Assembly (NCBI GenBank): GCA_016211215.1
Contig: JACQSR010000014.1
Location: 14,980-78,979, forward strand
DNA: 64,000 nt
Origin: Candidatus Woesearchaeota archaeon
Lineage (GTDB): Archaea > Nanobdellota > Nanobdellia > Woesearchaeales > JACQSR01
Direction of reading: 5' to 3'
Below, piece after piece: positions 2,799 through 50,452 of the stretch. The position numbers and the translations under genes were made by a program. The notes below the pieces were generated by a model that was given only the letters and a program-made list of their open reading frames with translations, made no database searches and was not told the DNA's origin. The stretch's first letter is position 1, and the number at the start of each line of letters is the position of its first letter.

Positions 2799-3328
2799 TT
2801 TCTTTTGCGCTTCGGCTCCTTGTCAAAAAACACATAATACACAATCACGCCTCCAAGGGCAAGGACTGCTGCTGCAATGGCAATATTTCTGCCGCCAAAG
2901 GCTATGCTTTCCATGGCAGGCAGTATTGAATCAGTGCCTTCAACAACCCTCAGGTTTACTTTTATGGAAACTCCCGGAGATATCAAAAGAGCTCCCTGAT
3001 TCTCGCTGTAAAAGCTGATTTCTATTCTCTCCTCGCTGTTTTGTATTGCAGCGTCCATCGGTATTCTCAGCAGGAACTGTATTTTTTCCTCTGAATCTTC
3101 TTTAATCTGCCCTTCGGAAGGAATGGTAAAATAATCCGGATGGTTCTTTACTTTAATTCTATAGGCTACATCATGTTTTGAAGGATTGAATATTGTGAAC
3201 TGCGCTTTGGTTTCAGAACCGCGCTCTGCAGTCAAATCCAGCGAAGATGGAGAAACTGCTATGCTCTGGGCTAAAGAAGGGGCCGCAAAAACAAATAAAA
3301 TAAAGAAAAAAAGAAAAATTTTCATCAA
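2795..3328 (-). CDS. Secreted protein with N-terminal signal peptide and C-terminal TM anchor followed by a KRKRK tail
   Basis: N-terminal hydrophobic leader ending LAQS; C-terminal IAIAAAVLALGGVIVYYVFF then KEPKRKRK. Coupled to the downstream lamin-tail-domain (LTD) protein. Confidence 0.5.
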   Translation of the reverse strand: MMKIFLFFFILFVFAAPSLAQSIAVSPSSLDLTAERGSETKAQFTIFNPSKHDVAYRIKVKNHPDYFTIPSEGQIKEDSEEKIQFLLRIPMDAAIQNSEERIEISFYSENQGALLISPGVSIKVNLRVVEGTDSILPAMESIAFGGRNIAIAAAVLALGGVIVYYVFFDKEPKRKRK

Positions 3329-4713: not shown

Positions 4714-4923
4714 CTACACTGCCTCAAGAAGAACTTCCCGCTTGAGGACCTTGCTCGCACAAAGTATCTCGACACCCAACAGCTTGTTGTTTTTATCAAA
4801 GTCCAGGATTATGCTGTTGTTTAGCCGGACTGTCTTTTTCGATTCCCCCTTTTTTATAGGATACTCCAGATAAATGTATGCGGCATCAGTTTCCTTATCA
4901 TACTCTAATTTCATGGCGATCAT
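4714..4923 (-). CDS. DUF2283-family small protein (putative antitoxin partner of DUF4258)
   Basis: 70-aa protein with YDKETDAAYIYL...ILDFDKNNKLLGVEIL resembles DUF2283. It lies immediately downstream of the DUF4258-like ORF on the same strand. Confidence 0.55.
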   Translation of the reverse strand: MIAMKLEYDKETDAAYIYLEYPIKKGESKKTVRLNNSIILDFDKNNKLLGVEILCASKVLKREVLLEAV

Positions 4924-4939
4924 ATTACTGTAATCACCT

Positions 4940-5239
4940 TTATATAATTTTCCGTCTCGGCAAACACAATTGTAATGTGCCTGTTGTCAAAAACTGCGGA
5001 CTAAAGTCCACAGCGTGCAGTTTTTGAGCATGCTCAGAAATCGCCTTCTTACTCCGAACTGAAGTAGGGAGATTGCGAATGGCGATTTCTGACATTTCAA
5101 CAACACCCTCCGCCTCTTTTCTGCCTTCAAAAGATTTCTTCACGCAGGCAGGTTGCATAAGAACCTGTTCGACATGAAGGTATGTTACCCCTCTCTGGCC
5201 CATCCGTTTTAGCGCGTGGCTTGAATAAATTATGTTCAT
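4940..5239 (-). CDS. DUF4258-family toxin-like protein. Its C-terminal third overlaps the palindromic element at 5015-5107, so the true stop is uncertain
   Basis: N-terminus MNIIYSSHALKRMGQRGVTYLHVEQVL matches the HAxxRMxxRGI pattern of DUF4258. Confidence 0.5.
   Translation of the reverse strand: MNIIYSSHALKRMGQRGVTYLHVEQVLMQPACVKKSFEGRKEAEGVVEMSEIAIRNLPTSVRSKKAISEHAQKLHAVDFSPQFLTTGTLQLCLPRRKII
5015..5107. repeat. Palindromic structured element copy A (TTGAGCATGCTCAGAAAT / 12-bp stem / 54-nt interior / ATTTCTGACATTT)
   Basis: Shares an 18-mer and a 13-mer with copy B at 12831-12927 at identical 54-nt spacing. The stem extension covaries (CGCC/GGCG here). Confidence 0.6.
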
Positions 5240-5326: not shown

Positions 5327-6892
5327 TTATCCCACAAACACCGGCACATACCCAAGCGTAAATGTTATTTTGCCATTCTCTGAACCAACAGTCTGGGATG
5401 CCCCATGAGTCTGGCCCCTTTCAGTTGGAATTTCCGTAACTGCCGCGGTTTTCCTTTTCCAGGGCAATGACACGGCAGCTGAAGGCAGATTTGCATCCAA
5501 TCCATAAAACTTCCCGTCGTCGTACCACGCAACAATTATTTCACTGCCGCTTATGTTGAATTCGTATGCATATACATTTTCAGGCGTTGAAAGCCTCCTG
5601 GCATCATTGAATCCCTGAAGCCGGGATGCCATCTTTGCGGCATAAAATCCCGGGCGCCTTTCTTTCGGAGTTCTCTTAGCAGTAAGCTGGTCGCCGCCGC
5701 TGTAGGAGGTGTCAATCAATCCGAAATTAGACGATGTTCCCGCACCGAAGGGAATGGGCCAGTCTTCCAGATTGCCGATGTTGATGCCCAAATAGCCCTC
5801 TGCCGCTGCTGTGGCATATTTTCTTGTGAGCCCTATTGCAACCTGCTTTTCCAGCCACCTTAATGATTCATCGTGGCTGGGGTCGCTTTTCTTTCTGATT
5901 GCATCTATTATCCTTGAGGCCTCGCATCTTGTTTCTGAAGTTACAGGGTAGAATTCCTTTGCCGCAAATATCCCCGGCTTGCATGACTCAAGGCCGTAAG
6001 CAAGCAAAGGCGACATTGGAAACGCGTCTCCGGCGTAGATTTCCCTTGAAGTGCCGCGCCTGGACATTTCATTCCTGAGCCAGCGCGCTGTTGCGGGAAG
6101 CTCTGAATAATCTGAAAGGCTGTGGATATCAATAATGTCAAAGTAATTGTATGCATCAAGCAGGACTGGAACGTCCGTTATGTCCTTCCTTTTTCCGCCA
6201 GGGGGGTTTGCGAGTCTTCTTTGGATTTCCCCATCGTCCGGATTTCCCTGGAAGATATCCCACATAAGCAATGCGTTCAGCATGACCTTTGCATTAGGAT
6301 TTGCCTCCTTGATTTTTGGGTAGGCAAGCTTCAGGACTTCAACGTAATCCGAGCCTGTTCCCGGAAAGAATGCGGTGAATTCGCGCTCAACGCCCCATTG
6401 GCTTATTGGGTAAATCAGGCCGGGCATATCATTTATTCCGTCGCTGTCATAGCGCTCAACTGCCGCACGCACAAAATTTTGATAATCATCCTCAAATTCG
6501 GGCTTTGGCCTTGTATCTTTTTTGCCCCGTGATGCCCAGTCTGACTGAGCTGTAATAAGAAGCTGGATGCCGGGAAATCCTGCCGACTGGTATTCTTTTA
6601 TGGTTGAATCAACGATTGACCAGTCATACGCGGAATTCTGAGAAGGCTGAATCCTGTCCCAATGCACCAATATTGGGCTTGGCTTCATTGTTTGCAGGCC
6701 GGTCTCTGCGTATGTTGATGCGAGGTATGGAACGCCGTATTCGAGCCCGAAGGAGAATTTTCCTGATATTGGAGATGGCTGAACCGGAACAGGTGTTGGA
6801 GGAGGCGGGGTAACCGGCACAGGCTGTTTTTTTGCGCATTGGATTAGCAGGAAGGCAATTACGACCAGAATGAAGATGTGCCTGAATTTCAT
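5327..6892 (-). CDS. Secreted lipoprotein, glycoside-hydrolase-like (TIM-barrel GH-like) with a Pro/Thr-rich linker
   Basis: Lipobox LLIQC after an N-terminal hydrophobic leader; PVTPPPPTPVPVQP linker; overall resemblance to glycosyl hydrolases. The exact family cannot be assigned by eye. Confidence 0.45.
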   Translation of the reverse strand: MKFRHIFILVVIAFLLIQCAKKQPVPVTPPPPTPVPVQPSPISGKFSFGLEYGVPYLASTYAETGLQTMKPSPILVHWDRIQPSQNSAYDWSIVDSTIKEYQSAGFPGIQLLITAQSDWASRGKKDTRPKPEFEDDYQNFVRAAVERYDSDGINDMPGLIYPISQWGVEREFTAFFPGTGSDYVEVLKLAYPKIKEANPNAKVMLNALLMWDIFQGNPDDGEIQRRLANPPGGKRKDITDVPVLLDAYNYFDIIDIHSLSDYSELPATARWLRNEMSRRGTSREIYAGDAFPMSPLLAYGLESCKPGIFAAKEFYPVTSETRCEASRIIDAIRKKSDPSHDESLRWLEKQVAIGLTRKYATAAAEGYLGINIGNLEDWPIPFGAGTSSNFGLIDTSYSGGDQLTAKRTPKERRPGFYAAKMASRLQGFNDARRLSTPENVYAYEFNISGSEIIVAWYDDGKFYGLDANLPSAAVSLPWKRKTAAVTEIPTERGQTHGASQTVGSENGKITFTLGYVPVFVG

Positions 6893-6925: not shown

Positions 6926-7489
6926 TTATACCCTGCCCTTGCTTTCCCCCAATTTGACGCCGGATGCTATGATGTGGGAAACCCTTATTGGCTCCGGAAT
7001 GAGGGAATGGGTGCAGCATATCTTCAGGAGTTCTTTTGCCCTTGAGAATGTGATGCCAACATGCTGTATGTAGATTCTGCCAGCTTTTTTTACCTCGCCG
7101 GCCTCCTCTATGAATCTAATCTTGTCTTCCATGCCTATTTTCCTAAGCGTCTTGATTATGTTATCCTTATCCGGCATCCTCCTTACCACGACAATCACCG
7201 GAAGACTGGTTTTTTTGTGAAGCTCGTTGATGTCTATGACATTGAATCCGCCAAAGCCTATTCCGTCGAGGAATATGCACTGCAGCTGGGGCTTCCACTT
7301 TGACCTTTCAACCATGGCGCTGATTTTCTCCGTGGAATTATTGCCGTCAACGCGCACCTTTGTCGACACAATGCCGTCAAGTGATGAGCCGCCCCTGAAT
7401 ATAGTCCCTATTACCAATGTATCGCCTTTCACGCGCTTGTCAAACGGCGAGTCATCAATTCCTATGACACGAACTTCCTTCTTGTACAT
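6926..7489 (-). CDS. DUF99/UPF0215-family protein (endonuclease-V-like fold), archaeal conserved
   Basis: About 187 aa with VIGIDDSPF...GTIFRGG... as in DUF99 proteins. Confidence 0.45.
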   Translation of the reverse strand: MYKKEVRVIGIDDSPFDKRVKGDTLVIGTIFRGGSSLDGIVSTKVRVDGNNSTEKISAMVERSKWKPQLQCIFLDGIGFGGFNVIDINELHKKTSLPVIVVVRRMPDKDNIIKTLRKIGMEDKIRFIEEAGEVKKAGRIYIQHVGITFSRAKELLKICCTHSLIPEPIRVSHIIASGVKLGESKGRV

Positions 7490-10494: not shown

Positions 10495-12315
10495 ATGTGC
10501 GGCATAATAGGCTACATCGGCCCAAGGGAAGCGGCGAATGTAGGAATAGGCTGCCTGAGGAGGCTTGAGTACAGGGGTTACGACAGCTGCGGGGGAGCCG
10601 TGATACACGACGGCAGGATGGAAATCAGGAAAGGCGCAGGAAAGATAGACGAGATAAACAGGGAACTGAAGCTGGACTCCATGAAGGGGAATATAGGGAT
10701 ATTCCACACGCGCTGGGCAACCCACGGCAATGTCAGCAGGGAAAACGCCCATCCGCACTGCGATGACAATGAAAAATTCAGCATAGTCCACAACGGGATA
10801 ATAGAGAACTACTCTTATCTGAAGGAGCAGCTGGCAAAAAAGGGCCATGCCTTTTCCTCTGAAACCGACACTGAAGTCATAGTGCATTTGATTGCGGATT
10901 ACTACAACGGAAACCTAAAGGATGCGGTGCTGAGGGCGCTGAACGATTTGGAGGGCTCTTATGCAATATGCGTCATATCGTCATACGAGCCGGACGTGAT
11001 TATTGCGGCAAAGAACGAAAGCCAGCTTGTCATAGGGCTGGGAAACGGGGAGAATTTTATAGCCTCAGACATTCCAGCGATACTCTCTGAAACAAAAGAT
11101 TTTATCATAATGGAGAACAGGGAAGTTGCGGTTGTGTCAAGGGATTATGCGGAATTCTGCAATCTTGAGGGAACTGTCATCCAAAAAAAGATTCAGAGAA
11201 CGGAGCTGGACGCTGCCAGCGCTGAAAAGGGGCTGTATGAGCATTTCATGCTAAAAGAGATTCACGAGCAGCCGAGGGCAGTTGAAGACGCCATATCAAA
11301 CCGGATAAGTGAAGGCAGGGTTATACTTGAGGGTGAATTTCCATTATCTGCAAATGATATTAAAAGGATTATTGTAGTTGCATGCGGCACAAGCTGGCAT
11401 GCGGGACTAGTTGGAGAGTTCATGCTCGAGGAGATTGCCAGAATACCAACGGAGGTGGAATATGCCTCTGAATTCAGATACAGGAACCCGGTAATTGAAG
11501 ATGGAACACTGGTGATTGCAATTTCCCAGAGCGGTGAAACTGCAGATACATTGGCGGCATTGAGGGAGGCAAGAAAAAAAGGGGCCAAAATACTAGGGAT
11601 TGTCAATTCTATTGGGAGCTCCATTGCAAGGGAAGCTGATTACGTGCTTTACACGCATGCGGGGCCCGAGATTGGGGTAGCGTCAACAAAGGCATTCACA
11701 TCCCAGCTTGCGGTGCTTTACCTGCTGACCGTTTACATAGGAGATAAGAAAGGTCTTTTGCCGCAGCAACAGGTGCAGAACAGAATCAGGGACATACGAA
11801 AATTGCCGTTGCAGATGCAGAAGGTGCTTGGCAAGAGTGAAGCAATAAGGAAAATTGCCGAGAAATATTCGGGGAAGAACAATGCACTCTACCTTGGGAG
11901 GGGCATTAACTACCCAATTGCACTGGAAGGGGCGCTGAAATTAAAGGAAGTTTCCTACATACACGCTGAAGGGTATCCCGCCGCAGAGATGAAGCACGGC
12001 CCAATCGCATTGATTGATGAGCATATGCCTGTTTTTTTTATTGCAACAAAGGATGAGCGGACATACAGCAAGATTATGGGGAATATTGAGGAGGTAAAAG
12101 CAAGAAACGGGGAAGTGATTGCAATTGCATCGGAAGATGATGAAGATATCGGAAAAAAGGCCCATATCGTGATTAACATACCGAGAAGTTCTTACATTTT
12201 AACGCCGCTGCTTGCAGTTATTCCGCTGCAGCTTCTTGCATACCATACTGCGACACTTCGCGGCTGTGATGTCGACAAGCCCAGGAATCTTGCAAAAGCG
12301 GTGGTGGTGGAATGA
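10495..12315 (+). CDS. glmS: Glutamine--fructose-6-phosphate aminotransferase
   Basis: MCGIIGY N-terminal nucleophile start, two SIS domains, C-terminal ...CDVDKPRNLAKAVVVE; 606 aa. TATA-like CCTTATAAAG about 25 nt upstream. Confidence 0.9.
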   Translation: MCGIIGYIGPREAANVGIGCLRRLEYRGYDSCGGAVIHDGRMEIRKGAGKIDEINRELKLDSMKGNIGIFHTRWATHGNVSRENAHPHCDDNEKFSIVHNGIIENYSYLKEQLAKKGHAFSSETDTEVIVHLIADYYNGNLKDAVLRALNDLEGSYAICVISSYEPDVIIAAKNESQLVIGLGNGENFIASDIPAILSETKDFIIMENREVAVVSRDYAEFCNLEGTVIQKKIQRTELDAASAEKGLYEHFMLKEIHEQPRAVEDAISNRISEGRVILEGEFPLSANDIKRIIVVACGTSWHAGLVGEFMLEEIARIPTEVEYASEFRYRNPVIEDGTLVIAISQSGETADTLAALREARKKGAKILGIVNSIGSSIAREADYVLYTHAGPEIGVASTKAFTSQLAVLYLLTVYIGDKKGLLPQQQVQNRIRDIRKLPLQMQKVLGKSEAIRKIAEKYSGKNNALYLGRGINYPIALEGALKLKEVSYIHAEGYPAAEMKHGPIALIDEHMPVFFIATKDERTYSKIMGNIEEVKARNGEVIAIASEDDEDIGKKAHIVINIPRSSYILTPLLAVIPLQLLAYHTATLRGCDVDKPRNLAKAVVVE

Positions 12316-12809
12316 TCAGGATTGCGAACATCAAAGATGCCGGGGGGATTGGAAATGTTTTGAAGGAAAGCTATAATATTGAGAGTGCTGAAGAAGGAAA
12401 AGAGGCTTTTTTTGAGGAGATGAAGAAAGGCATTATTTACATTGCTGCAGAAGAAAAGGGAAAGGTAATCGGGATTACAACACTGAAATTCCATGGGCTT
12501 CCAAAGCACGGATTGTGCGAGCTTGACAGGATTGCCGTTCTGCCGGAATACCGCGGAAAAGGTGTTGCCGAGAGTTTGTTTAATGCCCTTATTGGCGAGG
12601 CAAAGAAATGGTTTGAGAAGAGAAATGGAAAATTAAGAAAATTGTTTATTCTGACGCACGCTGAAAATGCACGGGCACAGAAATTCTACGAGAAGATGGG
12701 ATTAAAGCACGAAGCAACGCTAAAAGACCATTACTACAATGGAAAGGACGAGTTTGTGTATTCCCGGTTTGTCAAGAACCACCGGTCAGAGACCGGTGGA
12801 ATGAAGTGA
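12312..12809 (+). CDS. GNAT-family N-acetyltransferase
   Basis: RIAVLPEYRGKGVAESL acetyl-CoA binding motif; start overlaps the glmS stop. Confidence 0.7.
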   Translation: MIRIANIKDAGGIGNVLKESYNIESAEEGKEAFFEEMKKGIIYIAAEEKGKVIGITTLKFHGLPKHGLCELDRIAVLPEYRGKGVAESLFNALIGEAKKWFEKRNGKLRKLFILTHAENARAQKFYEKMGLKHEATLKDHYYNGKDEFVYSRFVKNHRSETGGMK

Positions 12810-12830
12810 AAGTTCTATCCTACTTGCAAG

Positions 12831-12927
12831 ACCAGTGGTTCTTGAGCATGCTCAGAAATTTTCCTATTGTCTGTTAACATTGGCTTACGCCACCAGTTGT
12901 AAACTGGTGGAAAATTTCTGACATTTT
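12831..12927. repeat. Palindromic structured element copy B (TTGAGCATGCTCAGAAAT ... ATTTCTGACATTT)
   Basis: Same terminal motifs and the same 54-nt interior length as copy A. The stem extension is TTTCC/GGAAA instead of CGCC/GGCG, and there is an additional internal IR ACCAGTGG/CCACCAGTT. Confidence 0.6.
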
Positions 12928-13567: not shown

Positions 13568-13729
13568 GGCTCTGTAGAAAGTCTCACTCCGTTCGGGATT
13601 AGCAGCTTCAAATTCCCTGATGCAGTAAGTGATGGCCGACATTTCCCATAAGGAATGCCCTTTGTCAGCTTGATTTTGAGGGCTATTGGAATTTGACTTA
13701 TGCTGCTAACCTACATTTTCTACAGAGCC
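13568..13729. repeat. Structured ~162-nt element, copy 3 (outer IR GGCTCTGTAGAAA / TTTCTACAGAGCC)
   Basis: Perfect 13-bp terminal inverted repeat; conserved internal blocks TTAGCAGCTTC, GACATTTCCC...CCTTTGTCAGC, GCTGCTAACC. Flanked by GGATTTC on both sides. Ends 8 nt from the stop codon of 13737..14525. Confidence 0.7.
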
Positions 13730-16488: not shown

Positions 16489-16537
16489 TTTTATCCCGGC
16501 TTTAATCCCAGGATAACTGTATAAAAAGGTTTGGGAA

Positions 16538-16557
16538 TAATGGGCCTGGGAAGATTA
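16538..16557. repeat. 20-bp duplicate of the tRNA-Arg 3' end plus downstream flank (ATAATGGGCCTGGGAAGATT)
   Basis: Exact repeat of 16627-16646, 89 bp away. Confidence 0.65.
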
Positions 16558-16629
16558 CACGCAAGGGTTACACCCTACGCACACCCGTACTCAAGTGAGA
16601 CATAAAGTCTCACGGACTTAGGAAAATAA

Positions 16630-16733
16630 TGGGCCTGGGAAGATTTGAACTCCCGATCTTCTGCTGTCTGATATCAGGGTTAGCTCCCTGATGTTAGAAG
16701 GCAGACGCCCTATCCAGGCTAGGCTACAGGCCC
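16630..16733 (-). tRNA. tRNA-Arg (anticodon UCU) with a ~29-nt intron at the canonical 37/38 position; CCA not encoded
   Basis: Acceptor GGGCCTG/CAGGCCC, D-arm GCCT-AGCCTGGATA-GGGC, anticodon stem TCTGC/GCAGA with loop CTTCTAA, T-arm GGGAG-TTCAAAT-CTTCC, discriminator A. Confidence 0.75.
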
Positions 16734-26707: not shown

Positions 26708-26869
26708 AGCTTAGTAGAAAACTCCGCTACGCTACGGGTTAGCAGCTTCGAGATTATTCTGTCTTTAGTGATAATTGACATTTCCCGTAGGGAGCGTCCC
26801 CTTTGTCAATGATTATGTAATCGCAAAGAATCTCGACTTTAGGCTGCTAACCTGCTTTTCTACTAAGCT
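26708..26869. repeat. Structured ~162-nt element, copy 1 (outer IR AGCTTAGTAGAAAA / TTTTCTACTAAGCT)
   Basis: Perfect 14-bp terminal IR; conserved TTAGCAGCTTCGAG ... CTCGACTTTAGGCTGCTAA; central TCCC-GTA-GGGA hairpin. Begins 9 nt after the stop of 26238..26699. Confidence 0.7.
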
Positions 26870-29259: not shown

Positions 29260-29342
29260 AGGTCATTACCTCCGGGTGTCAAAAACCATCTACTAAAGTA
29301 CATGTCAAAAGCTATTTAAATACCTCTTAGTGGGGTGGTTTC

Positions 29343-30656: not shown

Positions 30657-30820
30657 GGCTCTGTCCTGAATCTCGCTTACGCTCGCCTTTAGCAGCTTCT
30701 CGCTTGATATCCTACTCGCCATTGCTGACATTCTCCGAAGGAGCCAACCCTCTTGTCAGCTATGTGCAGAAAGAAAAGAAGCTCGACTTTAGGCTGCTAA
30801 AGGACTTTCAGGACAGAGCC
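30657..30820. repeat. Structured ~164-nt element, copy 2 (outer IR GGCTCTGTCCTGAA / TTCAGGACAGAGCC)
   Basis: Perfect 14-bp terminal IR; conserved TTTAGCAGCTTC ... CTCGACTTTAGGCTGCTAAAGG; central CTCC-GAA-GGAG hairpin. Starts 1 nt after the TAG stop of the DUF87 ATPase. Flanks AGCTGTAG / AGTTGTAG. Confidence 0.7.
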
Positions 30821-50245: not shown

Positions 50246-50342
50246 GATGCCATTAAGGGTTATTAGGGGGTTTTATAAATATTGTTGGCAAATGGAGAAT
50301 AATAGCAGATCGCATTAATAATTGGACATTTGTGCGCTCTGC

Positions 50343-50394
50343 TAGTATAGTAAAGTGCAATAATAAAGTTCCAATATTTATGCACTTTACTATA
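50343..50394. promoter_or_regulatory. Perfect 14-bp inverted repeat TATAGTAAAGTGCA-N21-TGCACTTTACTATA between divergent leuD and relB starts
   Basis: Seen directly; candidate operator or hairpin. Confidence 0.4.
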
Positions 50395-50452
50395 ACATTG
50401 GAAAACAGCAATATTTATATACTAGTTATAACTACTATATAAGGTACGAGAG

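Follow-up and report, generated by a model that had tools for sequence, protein, structure and literature searches.

A gene-less two-hairpin element in a DUF4258 toxin gene of a Woesearchaeota archaeon and its relatives across DPANN archaea

Introduction

A palindromic block occurs twice in a 64,000-nucleotide (nt) stretch of DNA from Candidatus Woesearchaeota archaeon (assembly GCA_016211215.1, contig JACQSR010000014.1, positions 14,980 to 78,979; hereafter the window), once inside an open reading frame (ORF) for a toxin of the DUF4258 family and once at the end of a GNAT acetyltransferase gene. An earlier note on this DNA had suggested that the block is a small structured RNA or a hairpin mobile element, which may have replaced the native C-terminus of the toxin. 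The locus raises the question of what these blocks are and how they came to lie in and beside genes. We find that the two copies, called here elements A and B, are members of a large superfamily of mobile DNA in DPANN archaea (Woesearchaeota, Nanoarchaeota, Pacearchaeota) that carries no genes and is non-autonomous, and that element A is a recent insertion that frameshifted the DUF4258 toxin gene in this strain.

Results and Discussion

Element A in the toxin gene

The insertion is seen directly by comparing alleles. A public contig (L004, run SRR12113383) has flanks 99.8–99.9% identical to the window and lacks exactly the 110 nt of element A. Its toxin gene encodes an intact protein of 69 amino acids (aa) that matches positions 1–70 of the 71 in the DUF4258 profile with 32.7 bits, and the stop codon of the gene overlaps the DUF2283 start codon. 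The toxin ORF of the window (4940–5239, 99 aa) is frameshifted and lacks an intact DUF4258 domain; it matches profile positions 1–32 of 71 only, with 19.7 bits, below the Pfam cut-off of 25 bits. Excision of element A in silico restores the 69-aa DUF4258 protein. The parts of the locus are the following.

5095..5239, minus strand: 5' part of the disrupted DUF4258 toxin gene, codons 1–48 (...EAEGVVE), by Pfam
4985..5094, minus strand: element A, complete, two hairpins, 110 nt; minus is the inferred top strand and the toxin sense
4920..4984, minus strand: 3' part of the toxin gene (NRHITIVFAETENYIKVITVI, then stop), now out of frame; its stop overlaps the DUF2283 start codon
4714..4923, minus strand: DUF2283 antitoxin-type partner gene, intact (Pfam, E = 1.5e-15)

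On the plus strand, the empty site has the sequence CCTGT^TTTCAACAAC, and comparison of the empty with the filled allele reveals no target-site duplication, with an ambiguity of at most 1 nt. The idea that the native C-terminus had been replaced does not hold, since the element was inserted with a frameshift and the native C-terminal coding sequence (DNRHITIVFAETENYIKVITVI, then stop) persists downstream in another frame. The earlier note had proposed a check on where the ORF diverges from its homologues; the profile match ends at position 32 of 71. The note's statement that the 3' arm of copy A encodes EMSEI is borne out by the ORF junction, which reads E-MSEI.

The DUF2283 neighbour gene is also present on four other public contigs. 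Three contigs from Logan assemblies (L001, L002, L003) are 100% identical to the window, and all of them stop at position 5021, inside element A. The fact that three independent assemblies end just before the central palindrome of the element indicates that it breaks short-read assemblies. The element has no designed role in the toxin–antitoxin locus. We also considered a coding reading of the minus strand of element A (MSEIAIRNLP...ISEHAQ, similar to the N-terminus of a ribbon-helix-helix antitoxin). It was rejected: Pfam returned nothing, element B has stops in that frame and another frame offset, and the peptide is not conserved in other A-type copies.

Two-hairpin architecture

The blocks common to both copies are confirmed as exact matches: the 18-mer TTGAGCATGCTCAGAAAT lies at 5024–5041 and 12842–12859 (chance expectation in the window 0.08 with up to three mismatches), and ATTTCTGACATTT lies at 5085–5097 and 12914–12926. 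The hairpin reported there has a stem that differs between the copies and is perfectly complementary in each, with 12 bp in copy A (5034–5045/5081–5092, loop of 35 nt) and 13 bp in copy B (12852–12864/12909–12921, loop of 44 nt). The interior had been given as exactly 54 nt in both copies, which is incorrect; the spacing of the blocks is 43 nt in A and 54 nt in B. Both copies fold with z-scores of −4.6 to −5.6 relative to shuffled sequences, on both strands and with RNA as well as DNA parameters.

The unit reported earlier is a real hairpin, and it is only the right half of each element, the third common block having been overlooked. This block, TTGTCAARAAC, lies upstream, at 4984–4994 in A and 12769–12779 in B; it pairs with the GTTYTTGA that opens the central block, and the pairing covaries (A/T in A, G/C in B). 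Each element thus consists of two hairpins that flank GCATGC, with the ends TGTCA...TGACA. The hairpin modules stand head to head, joined at GCATGC, and each has a conserved foot, TCARRAAY/RTTYYTGA, with one bulged base toward the centre. The consensus, with its midpoint between CA and TG, is 5'-TG-TCARRAAY-(variable stem-loop)-RTTYYTGA-G-CA-TG-C-TCAGAAAT-(variable stem-loop)-ATTTCTGA-CA-3'. The termini can be read as an inverted repeat, TGTCAARAAC against TGTCAGAAAT (the other end, reverse complement), and the terminal palindromes at the two ends look like inverted repeats with 8 of 10 positions matching. The identity of A and B is 56% overall. Their components are listed below.

4987..5027, no strand assigned: element A hairpin 1, foot TCAAAAACTGC/GCAGTTTTTGA (11 bp), the right-end (RE) side module on the top strand; from sequence and DNA folds
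4994..5013, minus strand: element A apical hairpin CTGTGGAC-TTTA-GTCCGCAG (minus-strand reading), a match to the RE hairpin of ISx (see below)
5026..5035, no strand assigned: element A central palindrome GAGCATGCTC, core GCATGC at 5028–5033, within the 18-mer
5034..5092, no strand assigned: element A hairpin 2, stem TCAGAAATCGCC/GGCGATTTCTGA, the left-end (LE) side module on the top strand
12770..12923, minus strand: element B, 154 nt, boundary ±1 nt, of A-like architecture and another subfamily
12772..12845, no strand assigned: element B hairpin 1, containing CCACCGGTC-AGA-GACCGGTGG, which resembles the ISy RE hairpin; its arms of 16 nt (12772–12787/12830–12845) are 94% complementary
12852..12921, no strand assigned: element B hairpin 2, stem TCAGAAATTTTCC/GGAAAATTTCTGA, containing CCACCAGTT-GTA-AACTGGTGG

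Element B at the GNAT gene

Judging from the comparison with homologous proteins, element B rewrote the 3' end of the gene beside it.

12312..12809, plus strand: GNAT acetyltransferase gene, its last 13 codons (VKNHRSETGGMK, then stop) coming from element B

The GNAT protein of the window, whose exact sequence NCBI assigns to a Candidatus Woesearchaeota archaeon, has 165 aa and 1,022 homologues at E ≤ 1e-20, the closest of which have 154–156 aa and cover 92–93%. Six close homologues were aligned, and they end at ...VYSRFF and stop, or at most one residue off, which is where element B starts. The element has taken the place of the stop codon, and the protein runs on as VKNHRSETGGMK read from it. 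Deletion of 12771–12923 restores SRFF followed by TAG, and deletion of 12770–12923 leaves one T too few. No empty site was found for this copy among the contigs with the neighbouring gene, all of which carry the filled allele, and the boundary was set by the protein homologues. Copy B had been described as intergenic, which is true of most of it and not of its first 40 nt, the last 13 codons and stop of the GNAT ORF.

The family across DPANN archaea

Further copies, for which the earlier note had advised a search, proved numerous. At least 119 stretches of the species-representative genome collection contain the 18-mer, whereas chance alone would give about 17, as calculated from the collection size. 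Its hosts are about 60 metagenome-assembled genomes (MAGs) labelled Woesearchaeota, Nanoarchaeota/Nanoarchaeia, Pacearchaeota, Aenigmatarchaeota or "uncultured Methanosarcinales"; a handful of bacterial matches are without the element architecture. No copy was found in the viral contigs scanned for the element.

We extracted 97 full elements with lengths of 52–233 nt, which leaves no room for a transposase gene. Minimal forms of 52–54 nt, which consist of two feet and 3-nt loops alone, are abundant, and the larger forms carry recurrent interior modules. The two halves are immediately adjacent in 182 of 223 cases. Copies that share a genome are 85–100% identical. The interiors of A and B are unrelated to each other, as previously stated, and each has relatives in other genomes: the right half of A shares 91% identity with L022, and B shares about 80% with L018. 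Scanning metagenomes for one half followed by a non-canonical centre gave, among the matches listed, only two-hairpin variants, often nested in larger hairpins. Of the central palindrome, only GAGCA(C/T) is kept throughout the superfamily.

With an empty-site allele lacking exactly the element and hundreds more copies in DPANN archaea, the suggestion of a hairpin mobile element has been upheld, and we regard the element as very probably mobile, non-autonomous DNA. Its kind is known (miniature inverted-repeat transposable element, MITE; palindrome-associated transposable element, PATE; or SMR); the family itself is apparently undescribed, as neither the family nor its architecture and breadth in DPANN were found in the searchable literature, and no paper with the sequence string was found.

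Several smaller observations concern individual copies and their hosts. Many element-bearing MAGs, including L007, L008, L009 and L014, are titled 'uncultured Methanosarcinales archaeon', and L050 is titled Saccharibacteria; given their element content, these titles may be coarse or wrong, or the MAGs may be mis-binned. On contig L110, two 100% identical, co-oriented elements of 161 nt (2251–2411 and 5365–5525) lie about 3 kb apart in a composite-transposon-like arrangement, and they bracket genes for a 134-aa protein and a 706-aa cysteine-rich protein with a hydrophobic signal-like start, probably secreted. In a copy of a 157-nt subfamily (L088, 1791–1947), the left hairpin has an interior that runs in the opposite orientation to that in L005, L091 and all others, which suggests that the loop was flipped between the hairpin arms. 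A repeat of GTGGTTTTTGA(C/G)...ATTCCAC units stands beside elements or is fused to them (L069, about 2240–2560; L082, about 7060–7158; L112, about 2950–3110). In the window, positions 29277–29310 hold two neighbouring TGTCAAAA motifs (TGTCAAAAACCATCTACTAAAGTACATGTCAAAAGC) without the central block, possibly a decayed remnant of the family.

Insertion behaviour and copies inside genes

The flanks of 95 non-redundant flank pairs show a strictly one-sided preference. On the right, the positions next to the element are T+1 (94%), W, T+3 (93%), Y, A+5 (76%) and A+6 (71%), and the information content reaches 1.57 bits per position; the left flank has zero. The target TWTYAA adjoins the element directly and is similar to the left terminus of the element, TGTCAA; on the opposite strand, the target is TTTTRAWA^ and is similar to the far end of the element, TTYTTGACA^. 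At element A, the target GTTGTTGAAA and the end GTTTTTGACA match at 8 of 10 positions. The fact that the target mimics an end of the element explains the head-to-tail arrays (e.g., L087) and the frequent nesting.

Six elements have open frames that read through them on both sides, and Pfam confirmed the host gene for four of these.

L109: 54-nt copy in an amidase gene (GatA-like, 360 bits)
L085: 111-nt copy in the gene of a PGM/PMM enzyme, between domains I and II
L068: 120-nt copy in a GATase gene
L012: 126-nt copy in the gene of a CCA-adding enzyme

All four are stop-free, with lengths that are multiples of three. As at element A, the insertions in the amidase and PGM/PMM genes lack a target-site duplication.

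Covariation of the stems

The hairpins of the element are under selection. For 45 distinct elements, the first 12 stem positions of the two hairpins were aligned with an anchored register. In this alignment, 94% of cells were paired, compared with 80.5% after column shuffling, a level that none of 500 shuffles reached; 149 cells were changed on both sides, compared with 49 in the shuffles. Sliding the partner strand by one to three columns reduced pairing to 50% or less. The covarying stem extension shows three to six pair types per position, and thus the covariation that had been noticed between two copies holds across the family.

The stems are about 96% Watson–Crick. The G·T pairs (33) do not significantly exceed the A·C pairs (22; p = 0.18), which gives no evidence for a structure that is read from one RNA strand only. 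Rfam 15 gave no match at the element coordinates in the window with gathering thresholds, and none at E ≤ 1 on three element-bearing loci. The hairpin loops contain more A than T on one strand in both modules (184:127 and 231:177), counts that are not phylogenetically independent.

Link to IS200/IS605 elements

A Y1_Tnp gene at locus L181 (E = 9.5e-22) led to two tnpA-only elements of the IS200 type in DPANN contigs, here named ISx and ISy, whose ends were defined from ten insertion sites each. Their TnpA proteins represent two Y1_Tnp families with 22% identity: that of ISx has 143 aa, with one copy annotated Nanoarchaeota, and that of ISy has 148 aa, with copies annotated Woesearchaeota and Nanoarchaeota. 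With ^ for an end and parentheses for a hairpin, ISx reads ^ATTGTC...(CTGTGGAC-TTTA-GTCCACAG)AGGAGGTCATT^, and ISy, whose right end finishes in TTTTAC, reads ^TAGAAGCTGAGCTTT(CCACTGGTGT...ACACCAGTGG)CGTA...AATG(CCATCCAGTC-TATT-GACTGGTGG)...ATTTTAC^. Both (L246–L268, L181, L256, L257) are abundant in DPANN-type metagenomes at many insertion sites and lie for the most part on contigs of less than 2 kb. An element (L083) and an ISy tnpA (L257) occur together in one MAG, JAFGRO01.

The interiors of our elements resemble the end hairpins of these insertion sequences. The apical hairpin of element A, CTGTGGAC-TTTA-GTCCGCAG, matches the ISx RE hairpin of a Nanoarchaeota MAG in 19 of 20 nt, and its distance to the end is 9 nt, compared with 11 nt in ISx. 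On its minus strand, element B starts with ^TGTCAGAAATTTT(CCACCAGTT-TAC-AACTGGTGG)CGTAAG, parallel to the left end of ISy (13 nt before the CCACCAGTT..AACTGGTGG-CGTA unit in B and 15 nt before CCACTGGTGT..ACACCAGTGG-CGTA in ISy), and finishes with CATT(CCACCGGTC-TCT-GACCGGTGG)TTCTTGACA^, parallel to the right end. A blastn-short search found the ISy RE hairpin in ten elements and the ISx RE hairpin in element A of the window. Of 12 RE-hairpin matches, 10 have the same sense, and 11 lie in the RE module on the strand that was inferred independently from the target side.

These similarities suggest the following model. The element would be a PATE-like derivative or associate of IS200/IS605, and its variable interiors would be hairpins bound by Y1 (HUH) TnpA transposases: in copy A an RE hairpin of the ISx type, in copy B a pair (LE and RE) of the ISy type. 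The conserved feet may pair the cleavage-site tails with an internal guide-like strand, which would be an extended form of the guide/cleavage-site pairing of IS608, reportedly established by Barabas and colleagues and by Ton-Hoang and colleagues. TnpA supplied in trans would then excise and insert the element as single-stranded DNA ('peel and paste'). Overall, we judge it probable that these are non-autonomous, PATE-like elements whose single-stranded DNA is moved in trans; as for mobilisation in the manner of IS200/IS605 in particular, we lean towards it only slightly.

A number of points weigh against this model. No autonomous element with TGTCA...TGACA termini or with feet flanking tnpA was found, and the ends of ISx (^ATTGTC...GGTCATT^) and ISy (^TAGAAGC...TTTTAC^) are unlike those of the element. 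A tnpA gene is absent from the window, and only one was present in about 1.6 Mb of element-bearing loci. The minimal forms of 52–54 nt are abundant without any IS200-type apical hairpin, so the feet may be what the enzyme recognises, with the IS200-type hairpins as secondary nested insertions. Hairpins placed 2 nt from the ends and a TG...CA inverted-repeat dyad are unusual for IS200/IS605 and characteristic of DDE elements. Mobility is read from the comparison of alleles and homologues and not from transposition events, and the boundary of B is good only to 1 nt because of a homopolymer T run. When an autonomous copy was sought among orphan half-elements and in the metagenome scan for a half plus centre, only more two-hairpin elements appeared among the matches listed; genes between paired elements (ScpA/B-like and GyrA genes in L070, the secreted proteins in L110) gave none either, and the genes recurring beside elements include no transposase, DDE or integrase family.

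It is also conceivable, though we consider it doubtful, that the elements form an undescribed, phylum-wide class of single-strand hairpin transposons defined by their feet and TG...CA termini, in which the 4-nt guide pairing has expanded to a full helix or a still-unknown enzyme moves the element, and whose subfamilies plug in hairpins of different TnpA families. If so, the class would be a modular, 'adaptor-like' hyperparasite of IS200/IS605 that is spread across DPANN orders and tolerated as peptide insertions in essential genes.

Alternative explanations

The feet-only minimal forms, together with terminal inverted repeats, TG...CA termini, the dyad architecture and frequent nesting, would also be expected under the main rival reading, a classical double-stranded MITE whose TGTCARRAAY repeats are recognised by a DDE-type or otherwise unknown transposase, the IS200-type hairpins being nested passengers; a precedent is SMR-A of Haloquadratum, of about 110 bp, with inverted terminal repeats and no target duplication (PMC3119063). 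However, a fixed-length target-site duplication is absent at the insertion of A and at those in genes, and the target preference is on one side only. Unrelated stem sequences with near-perfect complementarity argue for recognition of a folded single strand, the IS200-type hairpins are consistent in polarity and module position, and neither a recurring DDE gene nor an autonomous insertion sequence with the same repeats was found in the limited sample of the window and about 1.6 Mb of loci. We therefore consider such a MITE unlikely. A folded recombination site of the Xer/dif or attC type is much harder to accept and strikes us as highly improbable. Its tyrosine recombinase would act on the core TTYTTGA-GCATGC-TCARAAA, and the central block does resemble two inverted arms with a 6-bp spacer, as does the tandem junction TGA-CATG-TCA. 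Yet the central palindrome is reduced to GAGCA(C/T) in the superfamily, a shared overlap region is inconsistent with AAAC in the target of A and CATG at the joined ends, there is no recurrent integrase gene in the vicinity, and the attC R'/R'' consensus (GTTRRRY/RYYYAAC) is absent. More generally, the element does not fit the consensus sequences of integron attC, dif/Xer and replication-origin (ORB) sites.

At the RNA level, the small structured RNA of the earlier note could be an RNA gene or a cis-regulatory RNA, possibly spread by mobility like the PATEs that bear guide RNAs. The strong folds (z about −5), abundant covariation, A-richer loops on one strand, GNRA-like and UNAA-type apical loops and conserved unpaired interior segments are all in keeping with an RNA, but the two strands fold equally well, the stems lack an excess of G·U over A·C, and Rfam has no match, even at E ≤ 1 on three element-bearing loci. 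In addition, the element is present or absent between near-identical strains within a coding gene, and in-frame copies lie in the amidase, PGM/PMM and CCA-adding enzyme genes; we thus hold an RNA function to be improbable. Inspection for RNA motifs gave no RUGAUGA box, and a 3' ACA is not conserved in the superfamily, so C/D-box and H/ACA small RNAs and K-turns were discarded. The copies inside essential genes of very small genomes also raise the idea of a mobile archaeal intron, harmless because the splicing endonuclease would cut it out at a bulge–helix–bulge (BHB) motif. BHB introns are known in archaeal protein-coding genes. At the junctions inspected here, though, the termini pair flush (TGTCA/TGACA), without two 3-nt bulges 4 bp apart and without constraint on the exon side, and stop-free lengths of 54, 111, 120 and 126 nt fit selection on translated insertions, not splicing. 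An intron is barely credible on these grounds.

Comparison with known systems

The closest parallels to the preferred single-strand, PATE-like model come from haloarchaea. In Haloquadratum walsbyi, 52-bp terminal-only PATEs are derived from IS605-type elements and may be mobilisable (PMC3119063). Like PATEs, our elements are gene-less, with a palindrome at each end, no target duplication, a short one-sided target and a minimal size (52–54 nt) close to that of the PATEs; they are homogeneous within a genome, where they occur in bursts, and fall into heterogeneous subfamilies from one genome to another. Their interior hairpins also seem related to the end hairpins (LE and RE) of IS200-type elements that occur alongside them. 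They differ in that the hairpins lie 2 nt from the ends instead of 10–20 nt inside, the ends are TGTCARRAAY inverted repeats, the foot is an 8–10-bp helix with one bulge accompanied by an exact 18-mer common to whole orders, and the termini and feet match neither ISx nor ISy. With SMR-A (PMC3119063), compared here by description and not by sequence, they share a size of about 110 bp, inverted repeats, the absence of target duplication, a strong target preference and nesting with PATE/IS605-type hairpins, and the mobilising enzyme is unknown in both. SMR-A, however, inserts into IS605-type palindromes, whereas here the IS200-type hairpins lie inside the element loops.

With IS200/IS605 elements (models IS608 and ISDra2), our elements share the lack of target duplication, insertion on one strand 3' of a 4–6-nt target that resembles the sequence of the right-end cleavage site, and LE and RE hairpins of the same polarity; tnpA-only members of that family are abundant in the same organisms. 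In contrast, our elements have no transposase, a dyad-like outline and fully paired 'tails' that replace the 4-nt guide. Rickettsia palindromic elements (PMC10969869) are likewise palindromic, of about 100–150 bp and in frame within essential genes of very small genomes, but their sequences are unrelated, their hosts are bacteria, and they have no known mechanistic link to IS200/IS605. The repetitive extragenic palindromes (REP, and REPIN) and their RAYT transposases resemble our system in short, paired or clustered hairpins with conserved feet and in the association with Y1 HUH enzymes, and the JGI label for the ISy TnpA family is 'REP element-mobilizing transposase RayT'. Unlike our elements, REPs are species-specific and extragenic, and RAYT genes are single-copy and flanked by REPs, whereas tnpA here belongs to multi-copy IS200-type units with different ends.

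DPANN archaea have tiny genomes, almost all knowledge of which comes from metagenomics, and little has been described of their mobile DNA. No DPANN family appears in a 2024 review of prokaryotic MITEs (PMC10969869), and a census of the same year gives one Woesearchaeon with about 105 MITEs per Mb (PMC11602168). The family is of practical importance for such genomes: it breaks assemblies (three independent contigs stop inside A), produces false ORF extensions and fusions (a toxin annotated with 99 aa instead of 69, a GNAT protein with 165 aa instead of 154), inactivates genes and adds peptides to essential enzymes. The 18-mer TTGAGCATGCTCAGAAAT is a simple annotation marker for the elements. 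In addition, as a natural series in which a conserved outer helix is combined with swappable inner hairpins of two IS200-type families, the elements could serve in tests of Y1 cleavage and target choice. The use of the family thus lies in DPANN annotation and in a natural experiment on IS200/IS605 end recognition, and it does not amount to a new principle.

Other features of the window

A second, unrelated MITE-like family of about 162 nt has three copies in the window (13568–13729, 26708–26869 and 30657–30820), with terminal inverted repeats GGCTCTGTAGAAA or AGCTTAGTAGAAAA and subterminal TTAGCAGC...GCTGCTAA; it is probably the 'first family' of the earlier reader.

An exact 21-nt direct repeat, AATAATGGGCCTGGGAAGATT, lies at 16536–16556 and 16625–16645, beside a tRNA gene of 104 nt (16630–16733, minus strand). 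One copy overlaps the 3' end of this gene and the other lies 89 nt downstream; the pair could be an att-site remnant of an integrated element. The tRNA was found by Rfam and missed by ARAGORN and may contain an intron. Rfam also detected an archaeal signal recognition particle (SRP) RNA in the window.

Positions 50274–50442 hold a cluster of AT-rich palindromes, e.g., TATAGTAAAGTGCAATAATA/TATTTATGCACTTTACTATA. The cluster could represent a further conserved repeat, or else a site with a regulatory or origin-like role. Beside an element of the family in a Nanoarchaeia MAG (L022, about 6810–6870) stands a closely similar hairpin, TAGTAAAGTGCA...TGCACTTTACTA.

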